Positions 42,136 through 63,816 of a stretch of DNA of 64,000 bases are shown here, piece by piece (the first letter of the stretch is position 1; the number at the start of each line of letters is the position of its first letter). Both the position numbers and the translations under genes were made by a program. The notes under the pieces were generated by a model that worked only from the letters and a program-made list of their open reading frames with translations, made no database searches and was not told the DNA's origin. This DNA comes from Candidatus Omnitrophota bacterium (GTDB taxonomy: Bacteria > Omnitrophota > Gorgyraeia > Gygaellales > Profunditerraquicolaceae): contig JAPLLX010000006.1 of assembly GCA_026387335.1 (NCBI GenBank), positions 125,702-189,701 on the forward strand, given 5' to 3'.

Positions 42136-42143
42136 ATTCTAAC

Positions 42144-43259: not shown

Positions 43260-43268
43260 ATTGTTTTG

Positions 43269-44120: not shown

Positions 44121-44133
44121 AGATCCAACAGGG

Positions 44134-45687: not shown

Positions 45688-45704
45688 ATTATCATTCCTT
45701 AGGA

Positions 45705-47684: not shown

Positions 47685-48486
47685 AAAAATACTGGTAACG
47701 CCGGCAACCCGTAGAATCCATTGCCCACTTTTTGTATATTTTGCTTATCTTGGCCTGAATTTTTCTGCGTTTGATTGTTTTATTTACGTAGTAAACAAGA
47801 AGGGCCAGCCTTTCTTCTTCATTCATGCCGGCTAATAGAGAATTTTGATGATTACGCTTTAAATAGAGAAGTTTATTAATTGTTTTAATCCTTCCGACCT
47901 CCTCCATTCTTATGAATAGATCCACGTCTTCGATATAACCAAACCGTTTCCTAAATCTTAGCCAACCGATTTTTTCTAAGTACCCCCTATTAAGCAAATA
48001 CGGCTGGCTCACATTTCCAGGATTTAGCGGTAATCCAAATTTCTTAAGGCGTAAAGGCACGCTGAATTTACCGCCTAAAATATGCGGGCTTAACTGCTTC
48101 CAAGAAACAATATTTTCTTCTATTTCATAAGAACAACCGCGGGCAATCGCGAAATTTTTATTTTTCTCTATAAAATCAGTGAACTCTTCCACGCAACCAG
48201 GCATAAGCATATCGTCATCGTCAAGAGGCAGGATATATTTTAAACGGGTAAGCTTAAAAAGCCTTTGCCTAGTGACACCTATACCGCATTTTTTCTGGGA
48301 GTATCTCCTTATTTTACCTTGGCCTTTGAATCTACTGATTATTTCCTCTATGCGTTGCTTTTCAACAGGAGTCGGCCCATCAAGCAAGATCACCAATTCC
48401 CAATTATTGCTAGTTTGATCAATTACGCTTTTAATTGCCGGAAAAAGGAATCTACTCCTGGTTACGGGCATCTGTACGGATATCAT
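47659..48486 (-). CDS. GT2 family glycosyltransferase
   Basis: 275 aa; PVTRSRFLFPAIKSV ... VILLDGPT ... PLDDDDML (DxD). Confidence 0.75.
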   Translation of the reverse strand: MISVQMPVTRSRFLFPAIKSVIDQTSNNWELVILLDGPTPVEKQRIEEIISRFKGQGKIRRYSQKKCGIGVTRQRLFKLTRLKYILPLDDDDMLMPGCVEEFTDFIEKNKNFAIARGCSYEIEENIVSWKQLSPHILGGKFSVPLRLKKFGLPLNPGNVSQPYLLNRGYLEKIGWLRFRKRFGYIEDVDLFIRMEEVGRIKTINKLLYLKRNHQNSLLAGMNEEERLALLVYYVNKTIKRRKIQAKISKIYKKWAMDSTGCRRYQYFFDYAKNKN

Positions 48487-49549
48487 CGCACGCCTCTAAA
48501 ATTAAGGTTTTATCCAAGGATGCTAAATTCAACGGGTCTATTTTCCTCCGCCTGACCCGGCTTTTCATTTCTTTCAGCCACCCATTGTATTTAAATTTAT
48601 TGGCCAAATACAGGCTTAATCCGTCAAGGTCGCGGTTATTTAGATAATACAATCTTGCCCAAAATGATTTATCGCTTCCGCTCCAAAGAGAAAAGAAGTT
48701 TCCCTTAAATTTCCCTTTCATATAAGTTTGGAGAAAAAATAAATTATCTTCCCGGCTGCGCACCCTGCCGTTAAGCTTAAACGATTTAACCCCTAAATCC
48801 CGGTAGAATTCTAAATCCTCCGGCCGTATACAGGGAGAGGTTAAGATATAATTAACATCCGTGATCATCTTTCTTATGCATTCCCGCTTAAAATAATCCC
48901 GGTCAAAGAACCGACTCTTATTGAAGAGCCCGACAAAGTAATAGTGATCTTTATTAAATGCGCAATTGTATAAGCAATCACTATTTACAATCAATTTAAT
49001 CTCTAGTCCCATTTTTTTAGATAACTTAAGCAGGCGTTTAAGATTAGGCACCTCTCTATTGACATCAATGGAAGGCGTAAGCATATTAATTTTATAATCC
49101 CTTAGCTGCGCCAGTTGCGCTGAATTCTTAATGTTAGCTACGGTGGAAATATTCAATTTATGGTCCCTGAACTTACGCGTAACAATATCCATCAGGCTTA
49201 GGCTGCTGACAGAGAGCTCATCCACCCCCAAGCCAAAGATCATCTTAATAAAATCAATTAACTCATTTTTCTTTTTCGGGTCGGTCTCAAATCTATGCAT
49301 GAAAGGAGAATTCAGGGTATATTCAAATACAAAACCAAGTTTATGCAGATAGGTTAGGTAACCTTTAAGTTTCCTGGGAGAGACTGACGGTAAGTTAAAT
49401 GGCGACCTGGCTGACGGCCAGACAGATGGATTAAGGCAGCCGTAAAAGGTTTTCACCCTTATTAGCTTATTTTTGAATTTCGCATTCAAATTTACTATAG
49501 CCTCAACTTCATCCTTGTTAAAGCTGGCTGGATAACTAAAATTTACCAT
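48452..49549 (-). CDS. Possible peptidase-U32-family protein (the U32 family includes O2-independent Fe-S hydroxylases); assignment tentative
   Basis: 365 aa; loose resemblance to U32 TIM-barrel proteins and a four-Cys cluster (CLYNC ... ECIRK ... SPCIRP). Confidence 0.35.
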   Translation of the reverse strand: MVNFSYPASFNKDEVEAIVNLNAKFKNKLIRVKTFYGCLNPSVWPSARSPFNLPSVSPRKLKGYLTYLHKLGFVFEYTLNSPFMHRFETDPKKKNELIDFIKMIFGLGVDELSVSSLSLMDIVTRKFRDHKLNISTVANIKNSAQLAQLRDYKINMLTPSIDVNREVPNLKRLLKLSKKMGLEIKLIVNSDCLYNCAFNKDHYYFVGLFNKSRFFDRDYFKRECIRKMITDVNYILTSPCIRPEDLEFYRDLGVKSFKLNGRVRSREDNLFFLQTYMKGKFKGNFFSLWSGSDKSFWARLYYLNNRDLDGLSLYLANKFKYNGWLKEMKSRVRRRKIDPLNLASLDKTLILEACDDIRTDARNQE

Positions 49550-49704
49550 TATTTCCCCGGAATTAGCTTCTTTTTGGTATTATATTCTGTCTTCCGGCAA
49601 TCCGCAAGCACTTTCAATCCAGCAAAATAAATTGAAATCGGAAAGTTAATATGGTTTAATAAGCAAGAGAGTTCGATACACTCTTCTAAAAACCTTACCT
49701 AAAT

Positions 49705-51306
49705 ATGGCTATATTCGGCTTTAGTGAAGACAATCCCGGTTTACTCGACAGAATGACCGGTTATCTTAAGGGACAAAAACCGGGCAAGGCTTATAAATTT
49801 TGCGCTAAAAATATTTGCCTGGCCTATGCGGATAAACTTCATAACGGCGATCCCAGAAATAACTTTGCTGTTTGCGATGGCAAAAAAACAATTGCGCTTA
49901 TTCTGGAGGGCCATATTTATAATACCCGGGATTTTGCGGCTGAATCAATCATTTGGCTATATAAAGAATACGGCTTAGATTTCATTAAGCGCCTGGAAGG
50001 AGAATTTACGTTTGTGCTCTATGATAGCCTGGCAGGTAAATTGATTTTTTACCGGGATGAATTTGGAACAAAACCTCTGTATTACTCTTATAAGAACGGA
50101 AAAATAATTTTTGCTTCAGAAATAAAAGCGATCTTCCGCCACCCCCTCAAACGAGAATTTAACCTTGAGGCGCTCGTTGAGCAATCAATATTAGGATTTA
50201 CTTATAACGATAAAACTATATTTTCCGGAATTTATTCCCTGCCGGCCGGCATTCCTACTCTATTCGACCTAAAGACACAAGCTTTTTCCTACCCCTCCTA
50301 TCGCCCTAAAAAAGGCTCTCGGAAAAATAATTTAACCGAGCTAGAAATTATCCAAAGGACAGAGAAACTAATCGTTGAATCTAGCCAGCGTAAGATTGCT
50401 TCGGAAAAAGAGATCGGCTTATATTTATCGGGAGGAGTAGATTCAACTTTAATCGCGGATATAATCCGGAACAATAAAATACGCGTAAACGCGTATTCCC
50501 TAAAGGGCCAAAAAAACCGCGCAGACTTATTTTATGCCGCAAAAAACGCTCAAAAATACGGTTTTCAGCATCAGATAATCGCAATAAAGGAAACCGAGGC
50601 TTTGCGTTTTTTACCCGCGGCTTGTTACCACGTTGAAAATATCTGGTTTCAGATGGCTAAAGTATACCTTTTTCTTCATAAAATAAAGGGTAATCAGCGG
50701 GTGAATTTATGGGGTATCGGCACTGAAGAATTCTTTAAAGGATTGGCTTCGCATATAAATCAGGAGGGATTCAGGAACTATTTAACCAATAGAATAACCA
50801 AAAAATACCCCCAGGCAAAGATAGTTCTTCCCTGGGCCCAAGAAATGCTTAGGCATCCGGCAAAGATAATGTTTGATGAAATTGCGCTGCGCACTCTTCT
50901 CTACCAAATAAGACTAATTTACCAGGTTTCGGCAAGTGTTAATCAAGAAGCGCGTTTTCCATACCTCTCTCAGAAAATAAGGAATTTCCTGGAACAAATA
51001 CCCCAAAAATTACATACTCAGAATGCTAACCCAAAATATATCATCCGGCAGATCGCCAAGACGCGAGGATTAAAATATAACAACAGGTTTAAATTAGGAT
51101 TTGATACCTCTTTGGATATGGAAGTTACTGCCAAATCCCTAAGGGAATTGTTTCCAAAAATAAAACCTAAACTAAAAAATCTAAAATTGTTTTCCGGTTT
51201 AAAATTTAACGCGGAGGAGATAATCTGTTTGGATATCTTAGACCGGGTAATGCTCAAAGAGACAAATCATTATAGCCAAGATTTACAAACAATATACCGG
51301 ATTTAA
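49705..51306 (+). CDS. Asparagine synthetase B-like amidotransferase lacking the N-terminal Cys nucleophile
   Basis: 533 aa; Ntn-glutaminase-like N-domain but MAIFGF instead of MCG(I/F); PP-loop SGGVDSTLIA in the synthetase domain. It is the only plus-strand gene in the accessory block, and a candidate promoter TTGAAA-N16-TTTAAT lies at 49633-49660. Confidence 0.8.
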   Translation: MAIFGFSEDNPGLLDRMTGYLKGQKPGKAYKFCAKNICLAYADKLHNGDPRNNFAVCDGKKTIALILEGHIYNTRDFAAESIIWLYKEYGLDFIKRLEGEFTFVLYDSLAGKLIFYRDEFGTKPLYYSYKNGKIIFASEIKAIFRHPLKREFNLEALVEQSILGFTYNDKTIFSGIYSLPAGIPTLFDLKTQAFSYPSYRPKKGSRKNNLTELEIIQRTEKLIVESSQRKIASEKEIGLYLSGGVDSTLIADIIRNNKIRVNAYSLKGQKNRADLFYAAKNAQKYGFQHQIIAIKETEALRFLPAACYHVENIWFQMAKVYLFLHKIKGNQRVNLWGIGTEEFFKGLASHINQEGFRNYLTNRITKKYPQAKIVLPWAQEMLRHPAKIMFDEIALRTLLYQIRLIYQVSASVNQEARFPYLSQKIRNFLEQIPQKLHTQNANPKYIIRQIAKTRGLKYNNRFKLGFDTSLDMEVTAKSLRELFPKIKPKLKNLKLFSGLKFNAEEIICLDILDRVMLKETNHYSQDLQTIYRI

Positions 51307-52443
51307 TCAGGCATCAAAACCCAGACCCGTGATATCAATAACCTTGCGCAGGTCTTTGTATTTTTTAAGTCGCAGCAATTTATTAAACAAATCTAGGCTG
51401 TTTTTTAATTCTACCCCGCAGGCCTTTTTAGTAGCTGAATAAGGGTAAACATCTACCCTGGAAAAACTAAACCTTTTTAAGAAATCTAAAGTCTGGACCA
51501 AATCATCTTTAGTCTCACCCGGGAATCCGACAATAATATCGGTAGTCAAACGTAGATTACGCACCTTGCGGCATAATTTATTAAACAACATCCGCAAGTA
51601 GGCGGAATCATATTTTCTACGCATCATCTTTAAAATACGATCGGAAGCCGACTGGATAGGAACACTTATTTCTTTATTGATCTTATCATTTAAGATGAGC
51701 TCCATAAGCTTATCCGATAAATCGTTGGGATAAAATTCCAAATAAAATACCTCCAGATTAGTCTGGGCTAAAATAAATTCTAATAACTGAGTGAAGGTAA
51801 AATGTTTGTTCCGCGGGTCATGCCAACCGCCCATGCAGGGCCCGCCAAATTCAATCCTCTTTATCCCTCTTAACCCCAACTGCCTAATCTGCTTTTTAAC
51901 CTCACTAAAACTGACATTCCTATTTTTCCGCAGGCAGGGGCAAATACAATAACGGCAATAATTATTGCACCCATTTTCTATTAATATTATCCCGGAATTA
52001 AGAGTGTTACGGTAAACCGGTTTATTAGATGAGGCTAGTGTTTTTCTTAAATATCCGGCAATGCCTTCTTCCCTTATAAATAATATATTCCGGAGACCTT
52101 TTATCTTGGTCTCTGGCAATGACGAGGATGGATAACTCAAGGAACAACCGCTTAATATTATCAAAGCTTCTTTATTGACCCTCCTAATGTAAAACAAAAA
52201 ATTCTTTACAAATTTTTCTAAGTAAGCGGTTATCGGGCAGGCATAAATAATAAAAACCTTTGCTTTGAAAGCCAGGCGTCTTTCTTGCGAATCGCGGAAG
52301 AAATCCCGGTCATCTCCAAAATATTGGTTATAGATAGAAAAGGAATTCTCTAAGGCAAAAGTTAACTGTTGCGCTTGGAACCGGTTAGCCGCGCAACCGT
52401 AAGATTTAATAAAAATGTCCGGATTTTTATTATTTTTAGGCAT
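51307..52443 (-). CDS. MiaB-like methylthiotransferase-family radical SAM protein (no TRAM domain evident)
   Basis: N-terminal MTTase block IKSYGCAANRFQAQ; rSAM motif GCNNYCRYC; 378 aa. Confidence 0.75.
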   Translation of the reverse strand: MPKNNKNPDIFIKSYGCAANRFQAQQLTFALENSFSIYNQYFGDDRDFFRDSQERRLAFKAKVFIIYACPITAYLEKFVKNFLFYIRRVNKEALIILSGCSLSYPSSSLPETKIKGLRNILFIREEGIAGYLRKTLASSNKPVYRNTLNSGIILIENGCNNYCRYCICPCLRKNRNVSFSEVKKQIRQLGLRGIKRIEFGGPCMGGWHDPRNKHFTFTQLLEFILAQTNLEVFYLEFYPNDLSDKLMELILNDKINKEISVPIQSASDRILKMMRRKYDSAYLRMLFNKLCRKVRNLRLTTDIIVGFPGETKDDLVQTLDFLKRFSFSRVDVYPYSATKKACGVELKNSLDLFNKLLRLKKYKDLRKVIDITGLGFDA

Positions 52444-52445
52444 CT

Positions 52446-53828
52446 CTAAAAATACAGATATTTCATATCGGCCCGCTTAATCCTGCCGGCTAGAGGAGAA
52501 AGTACTGCCCTGCATTTAGCAATAATTTTTTGATCATAAAAATATTTAGAAAAAATGGCGTACTCGCCCATATTAGCCGATTTAGAGCATAAAAATCCCG
52601 GTGTATCTTTAATTTTTTTTCTTGTTTTTAAATAGGCTATTTCTTTAGCGAAAACCTTATCCGGGTCTTTTTTAAAAATATCCCTGAATCTCTCTTTGCT
52701 GACCCTGCCGTAACGCAGCCAACTGGTTATAAAATATATCATTTCATCTCTTTGGGTTAGGCGGCAGGTTGATTGAATCGGGAGCTTCCCTTGGTTTAAA
52801 GAATAACAGTATTTATCCGGGTCGTTAAGATTAACGTATCTTGAATAACCGGTGGCATGAGAGACCGCCCCGGCTCCTAGACCTAAAAATGGGCTGTTGT
52901 GTTCTATCGCATCGGAGAGTTGGACATTCCGAGCTGCCGGGTTTAGGCCGTTAGCGTCAAATTCTATCGCCGCGTATCCGGCTTGCCTAATAACTGCCTG
53001 GCTGATTTTGGCCAAACGCTCTCTTAGATCCATCTCTTCTTTAGAAAGCTGGCCTCCGGCTTGCATAAATGCGGTTAAGGCTGTCGGATAAAAGGGATGG
53101 ATATGGATCAATTCGGGCCGCAGCCGAATTACCTCCTCAAGGGTTTTCAAAACACTCTTAGCGGTTTGCCCGCTTAATCCTACCATTAAATCAACATTAA
53201 TGTTGGCTATTCCGGCGTTGCGGGCATCCTGAAAACAGCGCTCAAATGATTCTTTTGACTGATAGCGATTAGCGGACTCTAGGACCCGGCTATCTAAACT
53301 TTGGATACCTATAGTCAGCCTATTCACGCCGTATTTCTTTAATAATTTGAGCTTAGTCCAAGATAAAAAATCAGGATTCCCCTCAAAGGATATTTGTCGG
53401 CATTGATTAAGGTTAAAACTCATATACAGAGCATCAAATAACTCTTTTAATTGGCCTAAGCTTAATAAAGCTGGCGTGCCGCCGCCAAGATAAACTGAAG
53501 ATAGGGGAAATTTTGCGAATAATGGTTTATAGATTTTTATTTCTTTCTTTAAGGCGGCGAGGTAATCTTTTAATGCGGCCCTTTGCGCTAACTCTTGAGA
53601 AAAATAACGGCAGAATGAACATTTTTGCTTGCAAAAGGGTATGTGCACATATAACCCCAGGTGCCTAAAATTATTGGCCAAGGATTTTGACCATGACCTT
53701 AAGATTTCCCGGTTTGAACGGGCTTTCCCCCACAAAAACATCGGGGGATATTGAATAGTGTAACCGCTAAAATCCGTATTAGCGATTCCCTCGGTGATAC
53801 GCTTGAACAAAAAATCGTTATTTTCCAT
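52446..53828 (-). CDS. HemN-like radical SAM protein (HemN/HemW; class C rSAM methyltransferase-type architecture)
   Basis: YVHIPFCKQKCSFCRYF and the HemN-family fold length (460 aa). Confidence 0.8.
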   Translation of the reverse strand: MENNDFLFKRITEGIANTDFSGYTIQYPPMFLWGKARSNREILRSWSKSLANNFRHLGLYVHIPFCKQKCSFCRYFSQELAQRAALKDYLAALKKEIKIYKPLFAKFPLSSVYLGGGTPALLSLGQLKELFDALYMSFNLNQCRQISFEGNPDFLSWTKLKLLKKYGVNRLTIGIQSLDSRVLESANRYQSKESFERCFQDARNAGIANINVDLMVGLSGQTAKSVLKTLEEVIRLRPELIHIHPFYPTALTAFMQAGGQLSKEEMDLRERLAKISQAVIRQAGYAAIEFDANGLNPAARNVQLSDAIEHNSPFLGLGAGAVSHATGYSRYVNLNDPDKYCYSLNQGKLPIQSTCRLTQRDEMIYFITSWLRYGRVSKERFRDIFKKDPDKVFAKEIAYLKTRKKIKDTPGFLCSKSANMGEYAIFSKYFYDQKIIAKCRAVLSPLAGRIKRADMKYLYF

Positions 53829-53833
53829 AACAT

Positions 53834-54978
53834 TTAATTAAGCAATTGCCGGGTCCCGTAAATTTTAGTAAACAAGCGGTTCCGGTGAAGTTTTCTTTCT
53901 ATTTCGAGAAAGGTATGGATATAAATCTGAGACAAGCGGCAGAATTGGGGAAAGTAGCGCTTAAAATCTAAGCCCCAAGAAGAAAAATAAATATAATGCC
54001 CAACCGGGCAGAAGCAGTATCTTAAATATTTACATCTATTGCAATCCTTACCGGTTAATTCCCTTATTTCTTTTCTCTTTTGGGCTAAGAGCTTAAGCCG
54101 TAAACGGTTATTTATCCCTTTATGGATATCCCCGATAATAAATTTTTTTCTTTCCGGCTGGGCTATAGAAAATACTTTATCGCAGCAATAAAAATTCCCC
54201 TCCCAACCTAAGTGGATTTTCTGGCAACGAATGGGTTTATAAAGCCCTTTTCCTCTTATAAATGTACCCAATAAAGAATTTTCAAAAATATCTTTACTAT
54301 CTTTGGCTTTCTCAAAGATAGAGATATAGAAATCGCTAAACTCCCGGAATGCTGATTCGGCTTTATCTAAGCCAGCTTTTGACCATTGGGTGTAAAGGTT
54401 AGGGAAGAAATTAATGCGGTTAAACCCCAGATTCCGGAGATATTTTATATTTTTGAGCAGGCCGCTGATTGTCTGAGGCGTAAAGACTAAAGCGGAATAT
54501 ATTTTATGTCTGGTGTTATCCAGATCCAGTCGCTTTAAGTTCCCGGCTAGGCGATCATGACTAGAGCCATATGCTTTGCGCTTGAAAGGACGGTTGGAGT
54601 CTTGAACCTTTTTCTGGCCGTCTATACTGACTGTGGTTATAATCCTGTTTTCTTTTAAAAAACTTGACCGGCTGGGAGTCAGAAGAGTACCGTTAGTAAC
54701 AACCGTAACCGCTAATTTTGAACTTCCCTTATTCTGCTGAATATAATGATACAGCTTTTTTAACTTTCCAAACCTTAAACAAGGTTCCCCGCCGACAAAA
54801 TTTATACTCTTAGTGTTTCCGGGAGATGTTAAAAAAAAACTACGGCCTTCTTTAACTGCTCAACATCCAGTTCTTTATCTTTACAACTGTCCTTTTTAAC
54901 GAAACAATAATGGCAATCTAAATTACAGTGCTTGGTCAAAAAGATGTTCAACGCCTCGGGATGACTTTCTAACACCAT
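53834..54978 (-). pseudogene. Radical SAM/SPASM maturase (HxsC-like position) interrupted by a single-base frameshift in a T9 homopolymer (54831-54839)
   Basis: From the ATG at 54976-54978: MVLESHPEALNIFLTKHCNLDCHYCFVKK...VVFF then stop. Reading on in the +2 frame through the T-run gives FFLTSPGNTKSINFVGGEP... and runs continuously into the annotated C-terminal fragment (53834..54271, CCDK...CNRCKYLRYCFCP). One extra T (T10) would restore an intact protein of about 380 aa. Confidence 0.7.
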
Positions 54979-55307
54979 CCCCCTCCTCGCCCATGGTTAC
55001 CGTGGTTAGAGTGGTTAGAGTGGTTAGAGTGGTTACTATGGTTGGTGTGCGAACTGGAATGTGGCGTAGAGGAAGTATGGCCGCCTCCCCCCCCAGAGAC
55101 GAGCGAGTTACTATGGCTGGAATGACTGGCATGCTGGGCCTGAGCGCCTTTAGGTTCTAGCATCATTCCCAATACGGCTAAAGATATGCCTAATTTAGCA
55201 ATATTCTTCTTAGAGGCGTTCCCTTCTTCATTAAAAAGAAAGTCTTTAATATTTCTTTTAGTAACGGGCAATTTTTTATTCACCTTCTTATGGAGCTTTT
55301 TTTTCAT
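54969..55307 (-). CDS. His/Ser-rich triplet-repeat secreted peptide (His-Xaa-Ser-repeat precursor-like)
   Basis: Likely start is MKKKLHKK (ATG 55305-55307), 6 nt after AAGGAGG; the ORF-track GTG start at 55376 overlaps the upstream gene. Hydrophobic segment IAKLGISLAVLGMMLEPKGAQA, then HASHSSHSNS...GGGGG...HSSSHTNHSNHSNHSNHSNHGNHGRGGGWC. Its stop overlaps the start of the downstream rSAM gene. Confidence 0.55.
   Translation of the reverse strand: MKKKLHKKVNKKLPVTKRNIKDFLFNEEGNASKKNIAKLGISLAVLGMMLEPKGAQAQHASHSSHSNSLVSGGGGGHTSSTPHSSSHTNHSNHSNHSNHSNHGNHGRGGGWC
54993..55047 (-). repeat. Tandem 9-bp coding repeats (GTGGTTAGA x3 perfect, plus degenerate flanking units) encoding the HSN triplet repeat
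   Basis: gtggttaga gtggttaga gtggttaga gtggttact atggttggt. Confidence 0.85.
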
Positions 55308-56073
55308 TACGCGCCTCCTTATTAAGGGTAGCACAATATTTCTGGATAAATTCTTCAAATCCCTCATACTTTTCACAAGTAGTTTCGTCCCCGCTGATAT
55401 AACCCTGGCACATTAATCTTATATTAGGATCTTTTATTCCGTTGCATTTAGCAAGATTCTTTTCCTTAATCGCTTTTATATAAATGACTTTATCTACACA
55501 AAAATCATTCTTGCACAGTTTAACGTTTCCGGTGGTAAAAGCCCTGCATTCATTGCGTTCTGCTTCATTTTGCGCCTTTTCACAGACAGAACTATCATTG
55601 TTCAGCACTCCTTGCATAAATAGTTTAAACCCTTCACTATTCCGGTCCTTCCAGGAATTCATCAATTGCAGGCTGTTAAAGCCGGACTTAAAAAATCTGC
55701 CGTATATACCCTGATACTCGGTAAAATTAACCCGGCAGTCTTCCAGAAGAGAAGGTTGTAAACTAAGTTTGCCGCATTCCTCTATATCATCCTTTACCAC
55801 TGAACGGCAGTAGATACAACCAGTTAGAAGCTCCACTATCGGGGCCACTCGGGGATCATTAAAGTCTACCTTGTTAATATAAAAATCCTTAGAGCAATCT
55901 GCTGGCTTTTTTTCTTGAGGATAAGTCTCCACTTCTTGGGGATAATCCTCGATTAACTCGGCTTCGCTAAAAAGGAAAGAAAAATGGCTACTCAACATAA
56001 GAGAAACCAGAGACAGGAAGATGACCTTTAGGGCTAGTTTAAATTTGTCCATTATCAGCTCCTCATCACCCAT
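55288..56073 (-). CDS. Cys-rich secreted/membrane-anchored protein (16 Cys in the mature part)
   Basis: 261 aa; N-terminal hydrophobic helix LALKVIFLSLVSLMLSS; cysteines in spaced pairs (CIYC, CEKAQNEAERNEC, CKNDFC). Lies between the rSAM gene and the His/Ser peptide. Confidence 0.5.
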   Translation of the reverse strand: MGDEELIMDKFKLALKVIFLSLVSLMLSSHFSFLFSEAELIEDYPQEVETYPQEKKPADCSKDFYINKVDFNDPRVAPIVELLTGCIYCRSVVKDDIEECGKLSLQPSLLEDCRVNFTEYQGIYGRFFKSGFNSLQLMNSWKDRNSEGFKLFMQGVLNNDSSVCEKAQNEAERNECRAFTTGNVKLCKNDFCVDKVIYIKAIKEKNLAKCNGIKDPNIRLMCQGYISGDETTCEKYEGFEEFIQKYCATLNKEARNEKKAP

Positions 56074-57497
56074 TTATAAAATATATCCTTTATCTTCTCA
56101 TCTTTGAGCTTAATAAATAAATAATCCAAAATACCCTTATTGATCTGGCACCAAAATGCGGACTTATTAAAAATGTTCCCATTTATGGTATAATTCTGCA
56201 AAGGACATACCCCGCAATAGGGTTTATATACGCACTGGCTGCATTCGGGAAGATTATCCAGGCATGACGCTATGCACATCGTTTTTACCACGTTACTCTT
56301 AAAAAAATCCCTGTGCGAACCGGTCCTTACATTACCCAGCCTAAAAGATTCGTCTTTCTGCCGGCTCATCATCCTTCCTTCGTCACAGGCATAAACATCG
56401 CCATTAAAATTATAAGCCATTTGCCCTGTCCCTGCCCCGCAGGGAGAACGCAAATCAACATAACCCGGATCTTTATCCGTCAAAATTTTAGTTAAAAATA
56501 TCACGGCGAACCTTTCCCGAAAATCTTTGCCTTTCATATTCAAATCTATTATATGATCCAAAGCCTTTTTATAAAAAGTAAGGAAATCCTGCCCGGAGAA
56601 AGCTAACCTCTTCCATACCTTCTTATTAGTCCCAAACGGGCTTAGCGGCCTTAAATGCATCCCTTCCAGCCCTAATTTTACATATTCATTGACAATTTCT
56701 TTCGGAAAAGGAAGGGCCAGGCGGGTAATCGTAGCCAGAGCGAACGGCTTATGGCAGGAATTTGCTTTTTTATACTCCCTTATTAATCTTTTCAGCCATT
56801 TAACCGTATTTTTATGACTATTTTTATTCCCCAGAGTAACCCTGCATTTGTTATGCACCTTTTCGGGCCCATCCAATGAAGTGCATATATGGATATCGTT
56901 CTTTAAAAGGTACTTAACTATTTTCTCATTCATAAAGGTCAAATTGGATACAACGGTAAAACGCAAGTCCTTCTTGGCTTTTTTGTTCTTCTCTTGAGCA
57001 TACCGAACAATAAATTTTATAATTTCAAAATTGACTAAGGGTTCGCCTCCCTGAAATTCAATAGTAATTCCTTTATTGGCAGATTCAAAAATCCTATCGA
57101 CAACTTTTTCAGCCGTAGCTATATCCATATCTAATTCATTTTCCTTAAGATCCCGGGAACTTGCCTGACAATAAATACACTTATGGTCGCATCTTAAAGT
57201 AACTACCACAATATGTAAAGCGGTGCCTGCACTCCTTAAAAACATATTTTTTTGCACGTATCTTTGGGCCAGGTTATCAAAGTTTAACTGACCCCGGATA
57301 AAACCTTTATTCCGCAACTGGGAATACTCTTGGGGCGAAGCTTGTTCTATTTTACCGCTAAGGAAGGCGTTAAAACTTGGGGGCTGCAAAAAAATATAAT
57401 CCCCTATGACATTAGTCAGCAAATATTGCCCGTTTAACCGCTTAAATTGAAAGAAACCGACCTTCTGTCTATCTATCTTTTCAGACTCTAGCAACAT
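56055..57497 (-). CDS. Radical SAM/SPASM peptide-maturase-type enzyme with an about 100-aa N-terminal extension (HxsB-like position)
   Basis: LRCDHKCIYCQAS; FQGGEPL; C-terminal SPASM CGAG...YACDEG ... CSQCVYKPYCGVCP. Confidence 0.85.
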   Translation of the reverse strand: MLLESEKIDRQKVGFFQFKRLNGQYLLTNVIGDYIFLQPPSFNAFLSGKIEQASPQEYSQLRNKGFIRGQLNFDNLAQRYVQKNMFLRSAGTALHIVVVTLRCDHKCIYCQASSRDLKENELDMDIATAEKVVDRIFESANKGITIEFQGGEPLVNFEIIKFIVRYAQEKNKKAKKDLRFTVVSNLTFMNEKIVKYLLKNDIHICTSLDGPEKVHNKCRVTLGNKNSHKNTVKWLKRLIREYKKANSCHKPFALATITRLALPFPKEIVNEYVKLGLEGMHLRPLSPFGTNKKVWKRLAFSGQDFLTFYKKALDHIIDLNMKGKDFRERFAVIFLTKILTDKDPGYVDLRSPCGAGTGQMAYNFNGDVYACDEGRMMSRQKDESFRLGNVRTGSHRDFFKSNVVKTMCIASCLDNLPECSQCVYKPYCGVCPLQNYTINGNIFNKSAFWCQINKGILDYLFIKLKDEKIKDIFYKWVMRS

Positions 57498-57700
57498 TTC
57501 TTGGTCGCTCCTAAGACGTAATTGTTAAATTCATCTACAAATATATCCTTGACCTGCGTATCTATATTCTCTATTTTTACTTCTAGGTAATCTTTACAAT
57601 CCTTGACCCTGAATTTTGCCAGATGAGCATAAGCAAGGATCGCTTTCTGGATCGCCTTTTTTTTATAAAACCGAGTATTAAATCTTACGTTTTCTGGCAT
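57488..57700 (-). CDS. Small hypothetical protein (70 aa, ends ...KKCC)
   Basis: ORF overlapping both neighbours within the operon; no family recognised. Confidence 0.3.
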   Translation of the reverse strand: MPENVRFNTRFYKKKAIQKAILAYAHLAKFRVKDCKDYLEVKIENIDTQVKDIFVDEFNNYVLGATKKCC

Positions 57701-58082
57701 TTTTCTGTTTTCTATGTTTCTTTTTCCAAGGCAAAGCTATACCTAAAGGATCATCCTGATAATCCAGTTTTTCGGAAAGACTGACTACACCCGGACCCGG
57801 TAAAGTAGTATATAAAGCGCGGCCAACGATATATTCCCTGATCTTTTTGTTATTCTTACTTATCTCGTATCTTAAGGCGCAGCGCAATAGCTCATTCTTG
57901 AATTCACCTTTTAACGCTTCCAGTTTTTTACCCGCAACCTTGCCTTTACTTTTAAAAAAAACCTTAATCTGATTTCCCTTAAGATCGCTATCCAAAAAAA
58001 TGTAGACGCGGTCAATAAATAAATAACAAGCATTCAAAATAGCTTCTAAAGGATAGATTCTTGCGCTTAGCTTAATCTCCAC
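57678..58082 (-). CDS. Small hypothetical protein with basic C-terminal tail (possible HxsD-like accessory protein; unverified)
   Basis: 134 aa, GTG start; located between the secreted paralogs and the rSAM/SPASM gene. Confidence 0.35.
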   Translation of the reverse strand: MEIKLSARIYPLEAILNACYLFIDRVYIFLDSDLKGNQIKVFFKSKGKVAGKKLEALKGEFKNELLRCALRYEISKNNKKIREYIVGRALYTTLPGPGVVSLSEKLDYQDDPLGIALPWKKKHRKQKNARKRKI

Positions 58083-58115
58083 TAAACTCCGCTCCTTCCT
58101 AAACTTAAGATTCCC

Positions 58116-58457
58116 TTAAGGTGACACAAAATAATCTACCGTACTCACCCATTTACTTTTATTTTTAACCCATACGTCACTAGCCGCGATCTCACCGTTA
58201 ACATCCAGTTCCGTCTGAACGCCCCCGTAGCTAGCTGCGCTGGTCGCTCCAATATTCACCTGCCCCTGGACAATAAGGCCGTTACTGGGCAGAGTGGTTG
58301 CTCTATACCCGGAGCCGATGGACATCTGGTCCGAGCGCAATTCTATATAACTACCGTAGGGCGAGGGATAGTAGGTAGCGATGGGGATGTTTTCTCCGGC
58401 AAAAACAGTTATATATCCTAAAAAAGATACCGCGATAATTAATAATAACTTCTTCAT
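58116..58457 (-). CDS. Secreted Gly/Ser-rich protein, paralog 1 (113 aa)
   Basis: Signal peptide MKKLLLIIAVSFLGYITVFAG; mature part ENIPIATYYPSPYGSY...VNGEIAASDVWVKNKSKW shared with paralog 2. Confidence 0.6.
   Translation of the reverse strand: MKKLLLIIAVSFLGYITVFAGENIPIATYYPSPYGSYIELRSDQMSIGSGYRATTLPSNGLIVQGQVNIGATSAASYGGVQTELDVNGEIAASDVWVKNKSKWVSTVDYFVSP
58149..58337 (-). repeat. 189-bp near-identical direct repeat, copy A (copy B at 58633..58821; about 98% identity)
   Basis: Copy A (58149..58337) aligns with copy B (58633..58821) with only 3-4 mismatches, which indicates a recent tandem duplication or gene conversion between the paralogous genes. Confidence 0.8.
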
Positions 58458-58470
58458 TGGAGGCCTTTAA

Positions 58471-58950
58471 TTAACCGCAGCATAAAAAAGATCCGGACGT
58501 AGGTATATCATAAGTAGTGGGGCTAGTGCCATATATTGGCTGAAACCAACTATACGTAGTCCCTGAACCGCAGAGGGTATTTCCAGTATTAGGTCCATAT
58601 GTCTTCATTGTACACCAGCTCAGACTCCCCAGCCATTTACTTTTATTTTTAACCCATACGTCACTAGCCGCGATCTCACCGTTAACATCCAGTTCCGTCT
58701 GAACGCCCCCGTAGCTAGCTGCGCTGGTCGCTCCAATACTCACCTGCCCCTCGATAATAAGGCCGTTACTGGGCAGAGTGGTTGCTCTATACCCGGAGCC
58801 GATGGACATCTGGTCCGAGCGTAGATTCGCGTAAACTCCGTAAGGCGAAGGATAATAAGTGGTAATGGTCAGATCTTCTGAAAAAGCAAAAGGGAAGGAA
58901 ATTATAATTAAACCTATAGAAATTACTAACGTGGTAAAAAATTTATTCAT
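58471..58950 (-). CDS. Secreted Gly/Ser-rich protein, paralog 2, with Cys-containing C-terminal tail
   Basis: Likely start MNKFF (ATG 58948-58950) preceded by AAGAGGTG. Shares the core with paralog 1, plus the tail CTMKTYGPNTGNTLCGSGTTYSWFQPIYGTSPTTYDIPTSGSFLCCG. Confidence 0.6.
   Translation of the reverse strand: MNKFFTTLVISIGLIIISFPFAFSEDLTITTYYPSPYGVYANLRSDQMSIGSGYRATTLPSNGLIIEGQVSIGATSAASYGGVQTELDVNGEIAASDVWVKNKSKWLGSLSWCTMKTYGPNTGNTLCGSGTTYSWFQPIYGTSPTTYDIPTSGSFLCCG
58633..58821 (-). repeat. 189-bp direct repeat, copy B
   Basis: See copy A (58149..58337). Confidence 0.8.
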
Positions 58951-59028
58951 TGCACCTCTTAGCATAATTCCTACTTGACCCTGCCCGCTCTTAAGAATAA
59001 ATTATCATAACTCCTGCAATGAGTCAAG

Positions 59029-60597
59029 TTAAAACAGGTGCGCCTTGACCCTGGCAATATCTTCTCCCTGCTTAAGCTCATTTATGAAATTTTCCATATT
59101 CTTCTCCCAGGCCCTATCCGTAAAAAAATAACGCGCGAGGTACTTATTCATTCGCCGCGGATCTTTAAACTTCCTGTTCATTAAAAATACGAACTGGACA
59201 GGCCTGAAATAATCAATCTTATTGCGGTCCAGGCACTCTAAGAAACGGGAATACCGGTATTCCATCAATTTCCTAGCCATATCCCACTTCCAACCCCGGA
59301 ATTCATCATAGGCAAACTCAAAACCCGGATTTGATTGCTCCCTAACATTAATAATCCTGTATTTTGCGCAAGATCTAAACATCAGACTTTCCGGTTTAAG
59401 CACAAACCTGTTTAAATTAACTCCTTTAATATACGCATTATTATCTCTTATGAATTCCAGCGTGGAAATGATATCCTGGCTCGTCTCAAAAGGCAAACCG
59501 ATCAACAGGTCTATCTCTACCCAGATGCCCAGGTCATGGCATAGTTTTAAAATATGGGAAGCGTGTTTAAGGTCAATGACTTTACCTATGTATTTCTGCA
59601 GTTTAATACCGGCGGATTCCAATCCGATCACCAGCCTTACTGCCCCCGCTTCTTTTAAACGCAAAAGTATTTCTTTATCCAGGTTATTAAAGGTGGCGCA
59701 GTCGGTAAACTTTATCTTTAGGCGCTCTTTTGCTATCTTATCGGTAAGATCCCGGACAGTCTGCTTGGTTGGATTGATATTCGAATTCAGAAAAAAGAAG
59801 TCCTGCGTCTTATGTTCCCGTTTAAGAAATTTTAGTTCGCGGATTATCCTATCGTAATCCTTTATCTTAAATCCGGGTTTTCCGGATAATTCACAAAATA
59901 TACAGCTATTCTGGCAGCCTTCGATAAACGTATACGGGAGCAATAAAGGAAGTGATTTTGAAACGCCGGTATATCTGGATAAATTGCTTATCCGCCCTGA
60001 ATGCGGGAGAAACTCCGAGATTATAGTATTCCTGCTGTATTTATATAGGCTAAGCGGAAACCCCTTAAAATTCGGCTCTAAGAAAATCCGGGGAAGTTTC
60101 GGGTTAAGCTTGTTTTTGACGTTTAAAAAATCAATAAAGCTGTCTATACTGGAAGTCTGGTAATCTATAAGGCCTGCCTCTCGGTAAGCCGGCAGCTCGA
60201 AATTAGCGACGATTATCACGCCATAGCTATCTTTTATCTTCTTCATCAGGCAGGCGGCGATAGCCTGGCTGTTGATTCTATCCAACGACGGGTAATGCCC
60301 GGAAAAACAGACATAATCATACCCCGAAAAATCTGTTAAGGCCATTACTTTTGCGGTTTCCGCATCAATCTCAGCGCAAGCAGACCCGCGTAGGTAATCA
60401 TTGACTCTGGCTTGGTCCAGAAAAACATCCGTTTTTATGCTCCCCTTTACCAAAGACCTGTAAAGTTTGACATAAAGATCGTCGATATCATGCTCTATAT
60501 TATTCTGGCTTAAAGCCGAACTTACTAGCGCCAGGCCCAAAGGAGGCATGAAGGCATGATAGAAATAGTAAGGGGTAAGAACTAATTTCACTTTCAT
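59029..60597 (-). CDS. Cobalamin-binding-domain radical SAM protein (class B-type architecture)
   Basis: N-terminal B12-binding-like region (VLTPYY...PPLGLALVSSAL) and rSAM motif EGCQNSCIFCEL; 522 aa. Starts 21 nt downstream of etfA. Confidence 0.8.
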   Translation of the reverse strand: MKVKLVLTPYYFYHAFMPPLGLALVSSALSQNNIEHDIDDLYVKLYRSLVKGSIKTDVFLDQARVNDYLRGSACAEIDAETAKVMALTDFSGYDYVCFSGHYPSLDRINSQAIAACLMKKIKDSYGVIIVANFELPAYREAGLIDYQTSSIDSFIDFLNVKNKLNPKLPRIFLEPNFKGFPLSLYKYSRNTIISEFLPHSGRISNLSRYTGVSKSLPLLLPYTFIEGCQNSCIFCELSGKPGFKIKDYDRIIRELKFLKREHKTQDFFFLNSNINPTKQTVRDLTDKIAKERLKIKFTDCATFNNLDKEILLRLKEAGAVRLVIGLESAGIKLQKYIGKVIDLKHASHILKLCHDLGIWVEIDLLIGLPFETSQDIISTLEFIRDNNAYIKGVNLNRFVLKPESLMFRSCAKYRIINVREQSNPGFEFAYDEFRGWKWDMARKLMEYRYSRFLECLDRNKIDYFRPVQFVFLMNRKFKDPRRMNKYLARYFFTDRAWEKNMENFINELKQGEDIARVKAHLF

Positions 60598-60618
60598 AGT
60601 TTTGTAAATAGCTATCTA

Positions 60619-61821
60619 TTAACGCTTAAGGGTTTCTTGGAATTTTTTAATTAAGGCAGGGATAATTTCAAAAAGGTCGCCGACTATTCCATAAGTAGCT
60701 ACCTTAAAAATAGGAGCTTCGGGGTCTTTATTAATGGCTACGATTATTTTTGAGGATTGCATACCGACCAAGTGCTGGATCTGGCCGGATATTCCGCAGG
60801 CAAAATAAATCTTCGGGGCGACGGTGCGTCCGGTCTGGCCCACCTGGTGCGAATAAGGCATCCAGCCGGCGTCAACTGCCGCGCGGGATGAACCAACGGC
60901 AGCGCCTAAAACCTGGGCCAATTCTTTTAATATCTTGAAATTTTCCGGGCTCCCCATTCCGCGGCCGCCGGAGACAATGATATCCGCTTCAGATAAGTTG
61001 ATCAATGATTCGACTTCCTCCACTATATCTAACAATTTCGTCCGCGAAAAATATAAAGAACTATCAAAGCTCTCTTTTATAATCTTACCTTTGCGCTTTT
61101 TATCTGCCGGCAGAGGTTGGAAGACTTTATGCCTGACTGTCGCCATCTGCGGACGGTAATTCGGAGAGATGATTGTCGCCATAATGTTCCCGCCAAACGC
61201 CGGACGAGTCTGAAGCAAGATCTTTTTATCCGGGTCAATATCCAGCCCAGTGCAATCCGCGGTCAGGCCGGCCTTAATATTGATGGCTACCCGCGAAATA
61301 AGCGAACGGCCGATATTGGTAGCTCCGCACAATAGAATCTCCGGTTTATGTTTTTTAATCAACTCCACTAATATATTTGTATAAGGCTCGTCCTGGAAAT
61401 TAGCTAATTCCGCAGCCTCGACTAAATAAATATTATCAGCGCCGCAGAAAATTAATTCGTCCAGCTGGTCTTCCATTTTATTGCCTATTAAAACGCCGCT
61501 TACAGCGCAGCCGATTTTCTTGGCTAATTCTTGAGCCTTACCTAAAAGTTCATAGGCCACCGACTGAACTTTACCGTTTTTCTGCTCTAAAAATACCCAG
61601 ATACCCTTATAATCCTTAATATCCGGAAGCTCGCATTTAGCCAAAGTCTTCTCAATTAAAACCGCCTTAAATTTACAGGCGTCTTGGCAGGCTCCGCAGA
61701 GAGTACACTTATGTAAATCAATGATTGCCTTTTTGTCCATAATGCGGATGGCATCAAATGGACAGGCTTTCAGGCATAAGGTGCAACCTGTGCACTTCTC
61801 AATGATAATCTGAATTGACAT
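60619..61821 (-). CDS. etfA: Electron transfer flavoprotein alpha subunit with N-terminal 2x[4Fe-4S] ferredoxin domain
   Basis: CTGCTLCLKACP and CTLCGACQDACK motifs followed by the ETF-alpha FAD-binding domain. Confidence 0.85.
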   Translation of the reverse strand: MSIQIIIEKCTGCTLCLKACPFDAIRIMDKKAIIDLHKCTLCGACQDACKFKAVLIEKTLAKCELPDIKDYKGIWVFLEQKNGKVQSVAYELLGKAQELAKKIGCAVSGVLIGNKMEDQLDELIFCGADNIYLVEAAELANFQDEPYTNILVELIKKHKPEILLCGATNIGRSLISRVAINIKAGLTADCTGLDIDPDKKILLQTRPAFGGNIMATIISPNYRPQMATVRHKVFQPLPADKKRKGKIIKESFDSSLYFSRTKLLDIVEEVESLINLSEADIIVSGGRGMGSPENFKILKELAQVLGAAVGSSRAAVDAGWMPYSHQVGQTGRTVAPKIYFACGISGQIQHLVGMQSSKIIVAINKDPEAPIFKVATYGIVGDLFEIIPALIKKFQETLKR

Positions 61822-62606
61822 TATGAGATAACCTCGCTTCTTAATAATTCCACTATCTGAGCCGCGATCTCCGGAACCTCGCCTTTAAGCATCTGGCCTC
61901 CGACTCTTTGCGGCGGAGTAAAAATCTTCACTACTTGTGTGGGCGAACCGCACAAACCAATGTTCTGCGGGTCCAAATCTAAATCTTTCTGACCCCACAT
62001 AATAATTTTGGCTGCTTTCGCGCGGATCATCCCTTTTAAAGAAGGAATCCGCGGTTCGTTTATCTCCTTAACTACGGTAAGTAAAGCCGGTAAGGGTGTT
62101 TCAATAATCTCAAACCCTTCCTCCAGCATTCTTTCTACGCGCATGGATTTGTCCGTTGCTTCTTCTACTTTCTTAACGTAAGTTACCTGCGGGATATTTA
62201 AATGCGTGGATATTCCGGGGCCGACCTGCGCGGTATCTCCGTCCGAAGCCTGCTTACCGCAGATAATCAAATCAAAGGCGCCGATTTTTTTAATTGCTCC
62301 GGACAAAGTATAACTTGTCGCCCAGGTGTCGCTTCCGGCAAATGCCCGGTCACAGACTAAAACCCCTTCGTCAGCTCCCATGGAAATCGCTTCGCGTAAA
62401 GCTCCGTCTGCTTGCGGAGGGCCCATGGTTACAATCGTAACCTTACCTCCAAACCTTTCTTTAAGCCGCACGCCTTCTTCAATAGCATACATATCAAAAG
62501 GATTGATAATGGATTTTACCCCTTCGCGGATCAAAGTGTTGGTTTCCGGATTTATCCTGACTTCAGTGGTTTCAGGGACCTGTTTTATGCAGACGATAAT
62601 ATTCAT
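61821..62606 (-). CDS. etfB: Electron transfer flavoprotein beta subunit
   Basis: 261 aa; MNIIVCIKQVPE ETF-beta N-terminus. Confidence 0.85.
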   Translation of the reverse strand: MNIIVCIKQVPETTEVRINPETNTLIREGVKSIINPFDMYAIEEGVRLKERFGGKVTIVTMGPPQADGALREAISMGADEGVLVCDRAFAGSDTWATSYTLSGAIKKIGAFDLIICGKQASDGDTAQVGPGISTHLNIPQVTYVKKVEEATDKSMRVERMLEEGFEIIETPLPALLTVVKEINEPRIPSLKGMIRAKAAKIIMWGQKDLDLDPQNIGLCGSPTQVVKIFTPPQRVGGQMLKGEVPEIAAQIVELLRSEVIS

Positions 62607-62607
62607 T

Positions 62608-63759
62608 TTATTTCGCCATCTCTCTAATCAACTGTAAACCTATAATATTACGCTGGATCTGGTTTGTCCCTTCGTAGATCTGAGTGATCTTGGCGTCGCG
62701 GACATATTTCTCAATTGGATAATCTTTCATATAACCGTATCCGCCGAAAATCTGCAGGGCATCTACAGTCACCTTCATCGCCACATCCGAAGCATACATC
62801 TTAGCCATAGCCGATTCCTTAGAGACATCTCTTGAGCCGGCGTCAATTGCCCGGGCGCAAGAATATACTAATGCCCTGGCCGCCTCAATTTCGGTCGCCA
62901 TATCCGCGAGCATCCATTGAATACCCTGGAAACTGGAAATTGATTTTCCGAACTGATGCCTCTCTTTGGCGTATTTTACGGCTAATTCCAGAGCGCCCTG
63001 GGCGATCCCTAAAGCCTGCGCCGCAACCCCCGGACGGGACATATCAAAAGTCCTCATAGTGACGATAAAACCCATACCTTCTTTAGCCAGTAAATTCTTA
63101 GCGGGAATTTTACAATCGGTAAATATTAATTCGCGGGTGGAAGATGCGCGGATACCGAATTTATCTTCTTTTTTACCGAAGGTAAACCCCGGAGTCCCTT
63201 TTTCAACGATAAAAGCTGACGCACCGCGCGCGCCTTTGTCCTTATTAGTCATAGCAATAACAGTATAAGTTTCCGCATCGCCGCCATTAGTAATAAAATG
63301 CTTTAGGCCGTTTAAAATATAATGCTCGCCTTCTTTTTTAGCGGTAGTCTTTATGGCGGAAGCGTCTGAGCCGGCTTCCGGTTCAGTTATGCCAAAAGCC
63401 GCGACTTTTTTACCGCTGGCTAAATCCGGAAGGTATTTCTTCTTTTGTTCATCATTGCCGAATAAAACTATCGGGAAAGTCCCTAACGCCGAGGCTGCGT
63501 AGCAAACAGCGATACCGCCGCAGGCGCGGGAGAGCTCTTCGGTAGCTAAGCAAAGGTTAGTGATATTGACACCCATTCCGCCGTACTCTTCAGGTATAAA
63601 TAAACCGAAAAGGTCGGATTCTCCGATGACCTTAAGCACATCCCAGGGGTATTCTTCGCTGATATCGTATTTGGCTGCCGCGGGACGCACCTTCTCTTCG
63701 GCGATCTTATGCGCTAATTCCTTGATCATCTTTTGTTCATCGGTAAACAAATAATCCAT
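62608..63759 (-). CDS. Acyl-CoA dehydrogenase (short-chain/butyryl-CoA dehydrogenase-like)
   Basis: 383 aa; ACAD N/middle/C domains (GFGITEPEAGSD, YEGTNQIQ). Confidence 0.9.
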   Translation of the reverse strand: MDYLFTDEQKMIKELAHKIAEEKVRPAAAKYDISEEYPWDVLKVIGESDLFGLFIPEEYGGMGVNITNLCLATEELSRACGGIAVCYAASALGTFPIVLFGNDEQKKKYLPDLASGKKVAAFGITEPEAGSDASAIKTTAKKEGEHYILNGLKHFITNGGDAETYTVIAMTNKDKGARGASAFIVEKGTPGFTFGKKEDKFGIRASSTRELIFTDCKIPAKNLLAKEGMGFIVTMRTFDMSRPGVAAQALGIAQGALELAVKYAKERHQFGKSISSFQGIQWMLADMATEIEAARALVYSCARAIDAGSRDVSKESAMAKMYASDVAMKVTVDALQIFGGYGYMKDYPIEKYVRDAKITQIYEGTNQIQRNIIGLQLIREMAK

Positions 63760-63816
63760 GTTTCCTCCTGTTTAATTCCAAAAATTATAACATAAAATAA
63801 TTATTTTACAAGATTT

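Follow-up and report, generated by a model that had tools for sequence, protein, structure and literature searches.

Does an electron-transferring flavoprotein (ETF) whose genes lie directly upstream of a radical S-adenosylmethionine (rSAM) gene act as a dedicated electron donor of the rSAM enzyme, or do the two only share a stretch of chromosome? The question is raised by a 64,000-nt stretch of contig JAPLLX010000006.1 (hereafter, the window), which comes from a Candidatus Omnitrophica metagenome-assembled genome (MAG), and in which the genes of an acyl-CoA dehydrogenase (ACAD) and of the two ETF subunits (acd, etfB and etfA) are followed head-to-tail by the gene of a 522-aa radical SAM protein, here designated rSAM522. 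For most radical SAM enzymes, the reductant that serves in the cell is poorly defined, and a conserved, dedicated ETF-rSAM pairing would have been useful in this regard; an earlier interpretation of this DNA, made from its letters alone (the sequence-only reading), had proposed such a low-potential supply to the rSAM enzymes, and had named coincidental adjacency as the alternative. The comparative evidence presented here shows no such pairing at this locus. With a probability of about 0.8, we consider that acd-etfB-etfA is a conserved core operon, and that the adjacency of rSAM522 is a by-product of the insertion of a lineage-specific island and reflects no conserved functional unit. Thus, it is the coincidental adjacency that the evidence favours, namely a 22.7-kb insertion and the absence of linkage on both the ETF side and the rSAM side.

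Gene arrangement at the junction

The four genes are encoded on the minus strand. The acd gene (63759..62608, 383 aa; Pfam Acyl-CoA_dh_N/M/1) corresponds to a Bcd-like short-chain acyl-CoA dehydrogenase or enoyl-CoA reductase; etfB (62606..61821, 261 aa; Pfam ETF) encodes the beta, or small, subunit of an ETF predicted to be of the bifurcating type; etfA (61821..60619, 400 aa; Pfam Fer4 families, ETF and ETF_alpha) encodes the alpha, or large, subunit; and rSAM522 (60597..59029; Pfam Radical_SAM at residues 223-383) comes next. A gap of 1 nt separates acd from etfB, etfB and etfA share 1 nt (TAATG), and exactly 21 nt lie between the etfA stop and the rSAM522 start (60598..60618, minus strand, tagatagctatttacaaaact), this spacer being the junction between the core operon and the inserted island described below. 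Gene calls and Pfam therefore bear out the gene identities, coordinates and spacing given in the sequence-only reading. Upstream of acd, a glgC-like gene and a GNAT gene continue the housekeeping block.

The minus strand holds 52 of the 54 open reading frames (ORFs) of the window, and 37 of the 49 gaps between same-strand neighbours (median 4 nt) do not exceed 25 nt. Hence, a 21-nt head-to-tail gap says little about operon membership, and the etfA-rSAM522 arrangement is no more than chance expectation in this strand-biased genome. The case calls for caution in general, as short same-strand gaps in compact, strand-biased genomes are a poor guide to function.

The acd-etfB-etfA block across Omnitrophota

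For the ETF side, EtfA was used as the query with one genome per species, and the best 80 of 536 tblastn-confirmed relatives were taken (loci are numbered with the prefix L). In these 80 Omnitrophota species EtfA is 69-91% identical and ACAD 74-96% identical (the ACAD of L006, outside this set, reaches 99%), and tblastn finds the ACAD-EtfB-EtfA triad wherever the contig permits. EtfA is matched over residues 1-400 in most of the 80 loci and over at least residues 1-394 in nearly all, a near-full-length match that includes the ferredoxin domain, which indicates a wide distribution of the ferredoxin fusion among Omnitrophota. No rSAM522 homologue was found within 8 kb of the ETF block at any of the 80 loci; a single one (L088) has an rSAM-like ORF downstream within that distance, 5.3 kb off and behind unrelated genes.

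The usual gene after etfA in Omnitrophota is smc, a homologue of which (~1075 aa) lies on the same strand 3' of etfA in 65 of the 80 loci, at distances of 84-7677 nt (median 591). In these loci smc is followed by an opposite-strand gene of ~394 aa and by genes of ~340 and ~155 aa, which correspond to GGDEF, recA and recX. The window carries the same series, with smc at 37594..34358 (minus strand; Pfam SMC_N), the GGDEF/GAF gene at 33171..34361 (plus strand), recA at 33085..31997 and recX at 32004..31537 (both minus strand), and 23,025 nt extend from the end of etfA to the start of smc. The ancestral downstream neighbourhood starts with a 59-aa HTH_17 gene (37788..37609, minus strand; HTH_17, 63.4 bits), and next to it lies a conserved promoter motif (37866..37842, minus strand; ...ATGTTAAAGAATGTAAAGATTTTCCTTGACA...TATAAT; 0 expected by chance) that also occurs 3' of etfA in many relatives (among L011-L090). 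The block thus reads glgC-like, GNAT, acd, etfB, etfA, HTH, smc, GGDEF, recA, recX. A promoter-like element together with the 59-aa HTH_17 gene precedes smc in many Omnitrophota species.

The slot 3' of etfA is variable across the phylum and constitutes a recurrent site for accessory cargo. Other occupants include an aldehyde dehydrogenase and a histidine kinase (L051), an M42 peptidase and an HD protein (L052), a series from PilM to secretin (L077), an epimerase and a kinase (L088), and pilin-like small genes. In the window, the occupants include a large multi-rSAM cluster and the genes of an HXS antiphage system.

Some further observations concern the block itself. At the identities given above, ACAD is unusually conserved across the phylum, and no other beta-oxidation or butyrate-pathway genes lie near it. 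An extra ORF of 121-132 aa stands between acd and etfB in L043, L048 and L051 (~6740..7136); of these copies only that of L051 was scanned, and it encodes a PilZ-domain protein. In L006, a 191-aa protein with no family match is encoded between etfB and etfA (2872..3447).

A 22.7-kb island directly after etfA

The insertion is delimited by relatives in which the site is empty. The DNA of L015, whose ACAD is 96% identical, matches the window by blastn from 63985 to 60634 and resumes 32 nt later with a match from 37916 to 30173; L011 behaves likewise, with 368 nt between the two matches. From these empty sites and the displaced HTH-smc genes it follows that approximately 37917..60633 (minus strand, ~22.7 kb, approximate ends) is an insertion relative to the ancestral layout, placed between etfA and the HTH-smc genes. 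The G+C fraction of the island genes is 0.36-0.42 (0.417 for rSAM522), as compared with 0.45-0.47 for acd and the etf genes; two secreted-protein genes of the island have 0.45-0.46. No integrase or transposase was found among the island ORFs scanned, and no search for tRNA genes or flanking repeats was made.

At least 9 rSAM genes are found in the island, along with glycosyltransferases, methyltransferases and the HXS system. In the direction of transcription it begins with rSAM522, two signal-peptide proteins, the HXS system, and HemN-like and MiaB-like rSAM genes; continues with an asparagine synthase-like gene (plus strand), a peptidase U32-like gene and glycosyltransferases, including one with a fused methyltransferase; and ends with a MiaB-like rSAM gene, three more rSAM genes, and DUF483-like, TPR and prepilin-peptidase-like genes. 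We propose that this island landed directly 3' of the etfA stop in the window lineage and its two closest known relatives, and that rSAM522, being its first gene, would for that reason start 21 nt after etfA.

Genomic context of the rSAM522 family

The rSAM522 family is small: 12 close homologues (E <= 1e-108), the window protein included, were found among 5.8 billion proteins. The genomic context could be read for 10 rSAM522 homologues (numbered with the prefix P), and etfA precedes the homologue in only two of them, P0002 (81%; L008 and L009) and P0003 (77%; L006). These two loci also have the most similar ACAD and EtfA proteins of all found (99% and 92-94%), so that the common junction is explained by recent common descent. 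In P0004 (68%), the gene order is DUF483-like, TPR, rSAM, rSAM294, recA; P0006 and P0007 (54%) lie inside multi-rSAM/methyltransferase/U32 clusters; P0008, P0009 and P0010 (48-50%) have a divergent upstream gene (TPR where readable), together with a convergent 243-aa gene and a peptidase U32 gene; and P0011 (46%) is flanked upstream by a divergent gene, short and cut, and downstream by a PilZ gene. No ETF genes were found near P0005 (57%) on its short contigs. The ACAD-ETF/rSAM adjacency, whose conservation in related genomes the sequence-only reading had put forward as a check, is therefore absent, among the loci compared, beyond the two closest relatives, and relatives with an empty site exist.

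The partners that recur with the family are rSAM294, a DUF483-like protein, a TPR protein, an A24-like protein, rSAM371 and a 308-aa protein, and their homologues in the window are found at 37962..43259, 16-20 kb from rSAM522. Judging from these gene neighbourhoods, rSAM522 probably belongs functionally with the island and not with the ETF. The multi-rSAM cluster at the far end of the island (37962..49549, minus strand) comprises rSAM294, rSAM371, rSAM283 and a MiaB-like 659-aa gene, and also two GT2 glycosyltransferase genes, one of which has a methyltransferase fused to it, and the genes of peptidase U32-like, DUF483-like, TPR and prepilin-peptidase-like proteins. In L002, L007 and L010, rSAM522 homologues are accompanied by part of this cluster.

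The cluster motif of rSAM522 is CQNSCIFC. Pfam sees the rSAM core alone, with no match to the B12-binding domain, and the NCBIfam matches, to HpnJ, ApyD and B12-binding rSAM models, are weak and all far under the cut-offs. In an AlphaFold model obtained from an 11-sequence alignment (mean predicted local distance difference test score, pLDDT, of 62), the N-terminal domain has a beta-alpha-beta arrangement; the fold comparison placed TsrM, AprD4, OxsB and MgmA first, with TM-scores of 0.3-0.4 for what is a low-confidence model. Taken together, the model indicates at best a class-B-like architecture, that is, a putative Rossmann-like N-terminal domain joined to the rSAM core.

The ETF belongs to the CarCDE/Bcd-EtfAB type

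The sequences of EtfA and EtfB are nearer to proven bifurcating ETFs than to non-bifurcating ones. Among solved structures, EtfA matches CarE best (6FAH_A; 434 bits over residues 1-395, ferredoxin domain included), and its next matches (7KOE, 5OL2, 7QH2 and 4KPU; 288-350 bits) we take to be bifurcating ETFs as well. As a whole, EtfA scores 288-434 bits against CarE, 7KOE_B, 5OL2_A, LctC and 4KPU_A, versus 139-172 bits against the ETFs of human (~170), Paracoccus (160) and Methylophilus, while EtfB scores 233-266 bits against CarD (its top solved match, 266 bits), 5OL2_B, 7KOE_A, LctB and 4KPU_B, versus 88-109 bits against non-bifurcating ETFs (human ETF-beta, 108-109). The best solved relatives of ACAD are 4L1F (431 bits) and 5OL2_C (415 bits), presumably the butyryl-CoA dehydrogenases (Bcd) of Acidaminococcus fermentans and Clostridioides difficile from bifurcating complexes, followed by CarC with 317 bits.

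Features within the subunits are consistent with this placement; their assignment is based on PDB alignments and general family knowledge. The N-terminal ferredoxin-like domain of EtfA (residues ~1-60; window 61642..61821, minus strand) matches Pfam Fer4, Fer4_7, Fer4_9 and Fer4_10, and contains eight Cys for two [4Fe-4S] clusters, arranged in two CxxCxxCxxxC motifs at residues ~10-49, CTGCTLCLKACP and CTLCGACQDAC. Arg206 of EtfA aligns with Arg203 of CarE, the residue beside the bifurcating FAD; the DGDTAQVGP stretch of EtfB is identical to that of 5OL2_B (CarD has DGDTAQVGS); and the EtfB alignment extends into the C-terminal arm, the roles of these elements in bifurcation being taken from PMC5861303 and family knowledge. 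By sequence, the ETF is thus of the CarCDE/Bcd-EtfAB (electron-bifurcating) type, and its bifurcating activity and substrate are predicted on the same grounds.

CarCDE, the caffeyl-CoA reductase-Etf of Acetobacterium woodii (PDB 6FAH), has the three-gene set in common with the window (ACAD-family reductase, EtfB and EtfA), and CarE, like the window EtfA, has an N-terminal ferredoxin-like domain with eight Cys and two [4Fe-4S] clusters (PMC5861303). Since the window ACAD is closer to butyryl-CoA dehydrogenases than to CarC, its substrate is more likely to be a short-chain enoyl-CoA than caffeyl-CoA. The Bcd-EtfAB complexes (A. fermentans 4KPU/4L1F and C. difficile 5OL2), the source of the best ACAD matches, score 233-319 bits against the window EtfA and EtfB, versus 108-172 bits for human non-bifurcating ETF, and they are similarly encoded in a compact, co-directional gene order; however, their EtfA proteins have no N-terminal ferredoxin domain (PMC9232219), and, unlike them, the Omnitrophota operon has no adjoining crotonase, hydroxybutyryl-CoA dehydrogenase or thiolase genes. 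The sequence-only reading had described a ferredoxin-fused EtfA as typical of bifurcating ETFs: the ETF type holds, the protein being CarE-like, but "typical" was too strong a term, as the domain is present in some bifurcating EtfA proteins and missing from others (PMC9232219).

Among the NCBIfam models, AcrABC, the non-bifurcating acryloyl-CoA reductase of Clostridium propionicum, provides the top match of ACAD (479 bits) and EtfA (351 bits) and the second-best match of EtfB (260 bits), all under the equivalog cut-offs (640, 475 and 600, respectively), and the AcrA model covers only the ETF part of the window EtfA, not the ferredoxin domain. As AcrABC illustrates, closeness in sequence to bifurcating ETFs is no proof of bifurcation (PMC9232219). 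A literature search combining Omnitrophota with ETF or bifurcation returned nothing relevant.

We propose that acd-etfB-etfA is a self-contained core operon across Omnitrophota that would encode a CarCDE/Bcd-EtfAB-type complex, in which NADH would reduce enoyl-CoA and also, via the bifurcating FAD and the fused 2x[4Fe-4S] domain, ferredoxin; alternatively, the reaction may run in reverse. A CarCDE-like, ferredoxin-fused ACAD/ETF operon strongly conserved in at least 80 Omnitrophota species bears on energy conservation in these uncultured bacteria.

Transcription across the junction

The etfA-rSAM junction is found in four independent assemblies, namely the NCBI MAG of the window, L006 (GCA_964612135.1), L008 (JGI 3300037067) and L009 (Logan SRR18595300). 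The 21-nt spacer of the window has counterparts of 35 nt in L008 and 67 nt in L006, with conserved ends and a middle that varies by indels, and therefore gives no suggestion of translational coupling; no Shine-Dalgarno match precedes the rSAM522 ATG. A terminator scan and a folding scan revealed no terminator-like site in or beside the 21-nt gap, in agreement with the sequence-only reading, which had noted no terminator-like hairpin there.

Upstream of acd, in the GNAT-acd intergenic region, lies a promoter-like site with an extended -10 TG (TTGTAA-16-TG-TATAAT; 63811..63784, minus strand), which with 10 of 12 consensus positions is the only site of that quality on the minus strand within 59-64 kb, and which is to be read as a consensus match only; weaker 9/12 matches of the same strand and interval lie inside genes. 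Closer to rSAM522, a weak promoter-like site (TTGAAA-18-AAAAAT; 60671..60642) is placed inside the 3' end of etfA, and an AT-rich TTTAyAAAAnT stretch before the rSAM522 ATG is conserved in three lineages; it was considered as a candidate promoter within the gap or as a mark of a leaderless rSAM mRNA, its fit to a -10 spacing being unconvincing.

Among relatives, a strong perfect hairpin (<=-20 kcal/mol) occurs within 105 nt 3' of etfA in 18 of 79, versus 5 of 82 in a coding control; none was found after etfA in the window, L006 or L008. Of the folding results, only such very strong perfect hairpins are counted as informative, and a simple terminator finder missed many. The minimum free energy alone was rejected as a terminator signal, its median after etfA (-11.2 kcal/mol) being weaker than that of the coding control (-14.2 kcal/mol).

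Long perfect inverted repeats just after etfA were observed in several loci (L012, 5058..5107; L020, 3343..3644; L027, 9585..9630; and L028, L038 and L033). Their arms recur between species, GGGACAGCGACCAT being found in L012, L020, L027 and L050, and GGGGACGGTTCT in L028 and L038. These repeats may constitute a family resembling repetitive extragenic palindromic (REP) elements or miniature inverted-repeat transposable elements (MITE), or a family of strong terminators.

Functional link or coincidental adjacency

The idea that motivated this work was that a co-expressed, ferredoxin-fused ETF feeds the [4Fe-4S] clusters of rSAM522 and of the downstream rSAM enzymes, either directly or via a local ferredoxin. 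It is in keeping with the shared strand, the short gap without a hairpin, the 2x[4Fe-4S] adaptor domain of what appears to be a bifurcating-type ETF, and the retention of the junction in L006 and L008/L009, and it has one curated precedent, the mycofactocin-associated EtfA/EtfB models of NCBIfam (NF038209, TIGR04503), in which an ETF is recurrently linked to rSAM maturation. Nevertheless, this linkage is recurrent whereas that of the window is not conserved; against the mycofactocin ETF models the window proteins reach 125 bits where 240 is the cut-off and 76 bits where it is 200, far short in both cases, and no mycofactocin families appear among the top NCBIfam or Pfam matches of the ORFs scanned. 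A homologue of rSAM522 accompanies the same ETF block in none of the 80 species, ETF genes are missing from the surroundings of eight of the 10 homologues with readable context, the ferredoxin fusion, itself widespread among Omnitrophota, is independent of the rSAM gene, and rSAM522 is the edge of the 22.7-kb insertion. Moreover, external ferredoxin and the bifurcating FAD of CarCDE and Ldh-EtfAB are connected by the ferredoxin domain, an adaptor or relay (PMC5861303, PMC9232219). A literature search for ETFs as rSAM reductants returned nothing relevant. For these reasons we regard a dedicated supply, as proposed by the sequence-only reading, as highly improbable; a specific redox link is probably absent, and any electrons from the ETF would reach rSAM enzymes through the general pool of reduced ferredoxin, as for any cellular rSAM enzyme. 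We give equally little credence to a newly evolved, lineage-specific wiring, in which read-through from the acd promoter would be combined with direct delivery of electrons from the EtfA ferredoxin domain to the class-B-like rSAM522. Still less probable is that the junction is a chimeric MAG join: the window does come from a MAG and its GC shifts near the junction, but the same junction is found in the four assemblies, which are from different sources, and beyond the far side of the island the contig continues into the expected HTH-smc-GGDEF-recA block.

Several points weigh against the insertion reading, or at least against its simplest form. With a 21-nt gap, no terminator-like hairpin and no convincing promoter before rSAM522, co-transcription with etfA is plausible, and so would be read-through from the predicted acd promoter into rSAM522; the strong hairpin seen after etfA in 18 of 79 relatives is missing in the window lineage; the junction has been kept in the three lineages sampled (window, L006 and L008/L009); a redox link is chemically reasonable, given that a bifurcating ETF yields low-potential electrons; and the ETF-side counts cover the best 80 of 536 relatives, among the rest of which rarer linkages may lie. 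On a further reading, rSAM522, and perhaps the two small secreted-protein genes after it, may be carried along on transcripts started at acd, with no biochemical link to the ETF. The sole strong promoter-like site upstream of acd, the missing terminator and the conserved AT-rich stretch argue for this, whereas the lack of a Shine-Dalgarno match or of a start/stop overlap (and hence of any sign of translational coupling), the unconserved spacer length and the weak promoter-like site in the 3' end of etfA argue against it. We hold such read-through to be a possibility of some substance, although a tentative one, and it is compatible with, not opposed to, a core operon next to which a lineage-specific island was inserted.

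The HXS system and other genes of the island

A 2026 report describes HXS (HxsABCD) as an antiphage defence by which the entry of phage DNA is blocked (PMC13128918). The His-Xaa-Ser (HXS) system of the window (53834..58082, minus strand) consists of HxsD, an HxsD-like protein, HxsB, a Cys-rich 261-aa protein, HxsA and a frameshifted putative HxsC, and forms a module separate from rSAM522, 1-5 kb downstream in the same island. HXS is not known to require an ETF. All its genes are on the minus strand. HxsD (58082..57678; 66.9 bits, cut-off 50) and HxsB (57497..56055; 505.9 bits, cut-off 370) exceed their NCBIfam cut-offs, as does the extra HxsD-like gene (57700..57488; HxsD_rel, 69.3 bits, cut-off 41); the Cys-rich protein (56073..55288) is interposed between HxsB and HxsA; and HxsA (55376..54969) presents ~10 HxS repeats, with no peptidoglycan-binding domain detectable by Pfam. 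The putative HxsC (53834..54978) was recognized by its rSAM CxxxCxxC motif, its Cys-rich C-terminus and its position. Its frame is broken by a single frameshift near 54830, such that the N-terminal 49 aa (CNLDCHYC) end in ...KKAVVFF* and the remainder continues in another frame to 53834; the split represents either a real pseudogene or a sequencing or assembly error. A PADLOC scan of the island proteins gave generic rSAM-domain matches only, with a 2023 library that seemingly lacks HXS. With its interposed HxsD-like and Cys-rich genes and its interrupted HxsC frame, the system differs from known HXS, and this Omnitrophota copy with extra genes may represent a variant.

Directly after rSAM522 lie the genes of two paralogous signal-peptide proteins of 164 and 113 aa (58116..58965, minus strand), which have no Pfam or NCBIfam match and have in common the core ...YYPSPYG.Y..LRSDQMSIGSGYRATTLPSNGLI... 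A homologue of these proteins is encoded 3' of rSAM522 in L006 (6386..6742) and L008 (2826..3278), and in seven further loci (L017, L023, L027, L028, L029, L034 and L050) homologues are found after GGDEF and, where visible, before recA.

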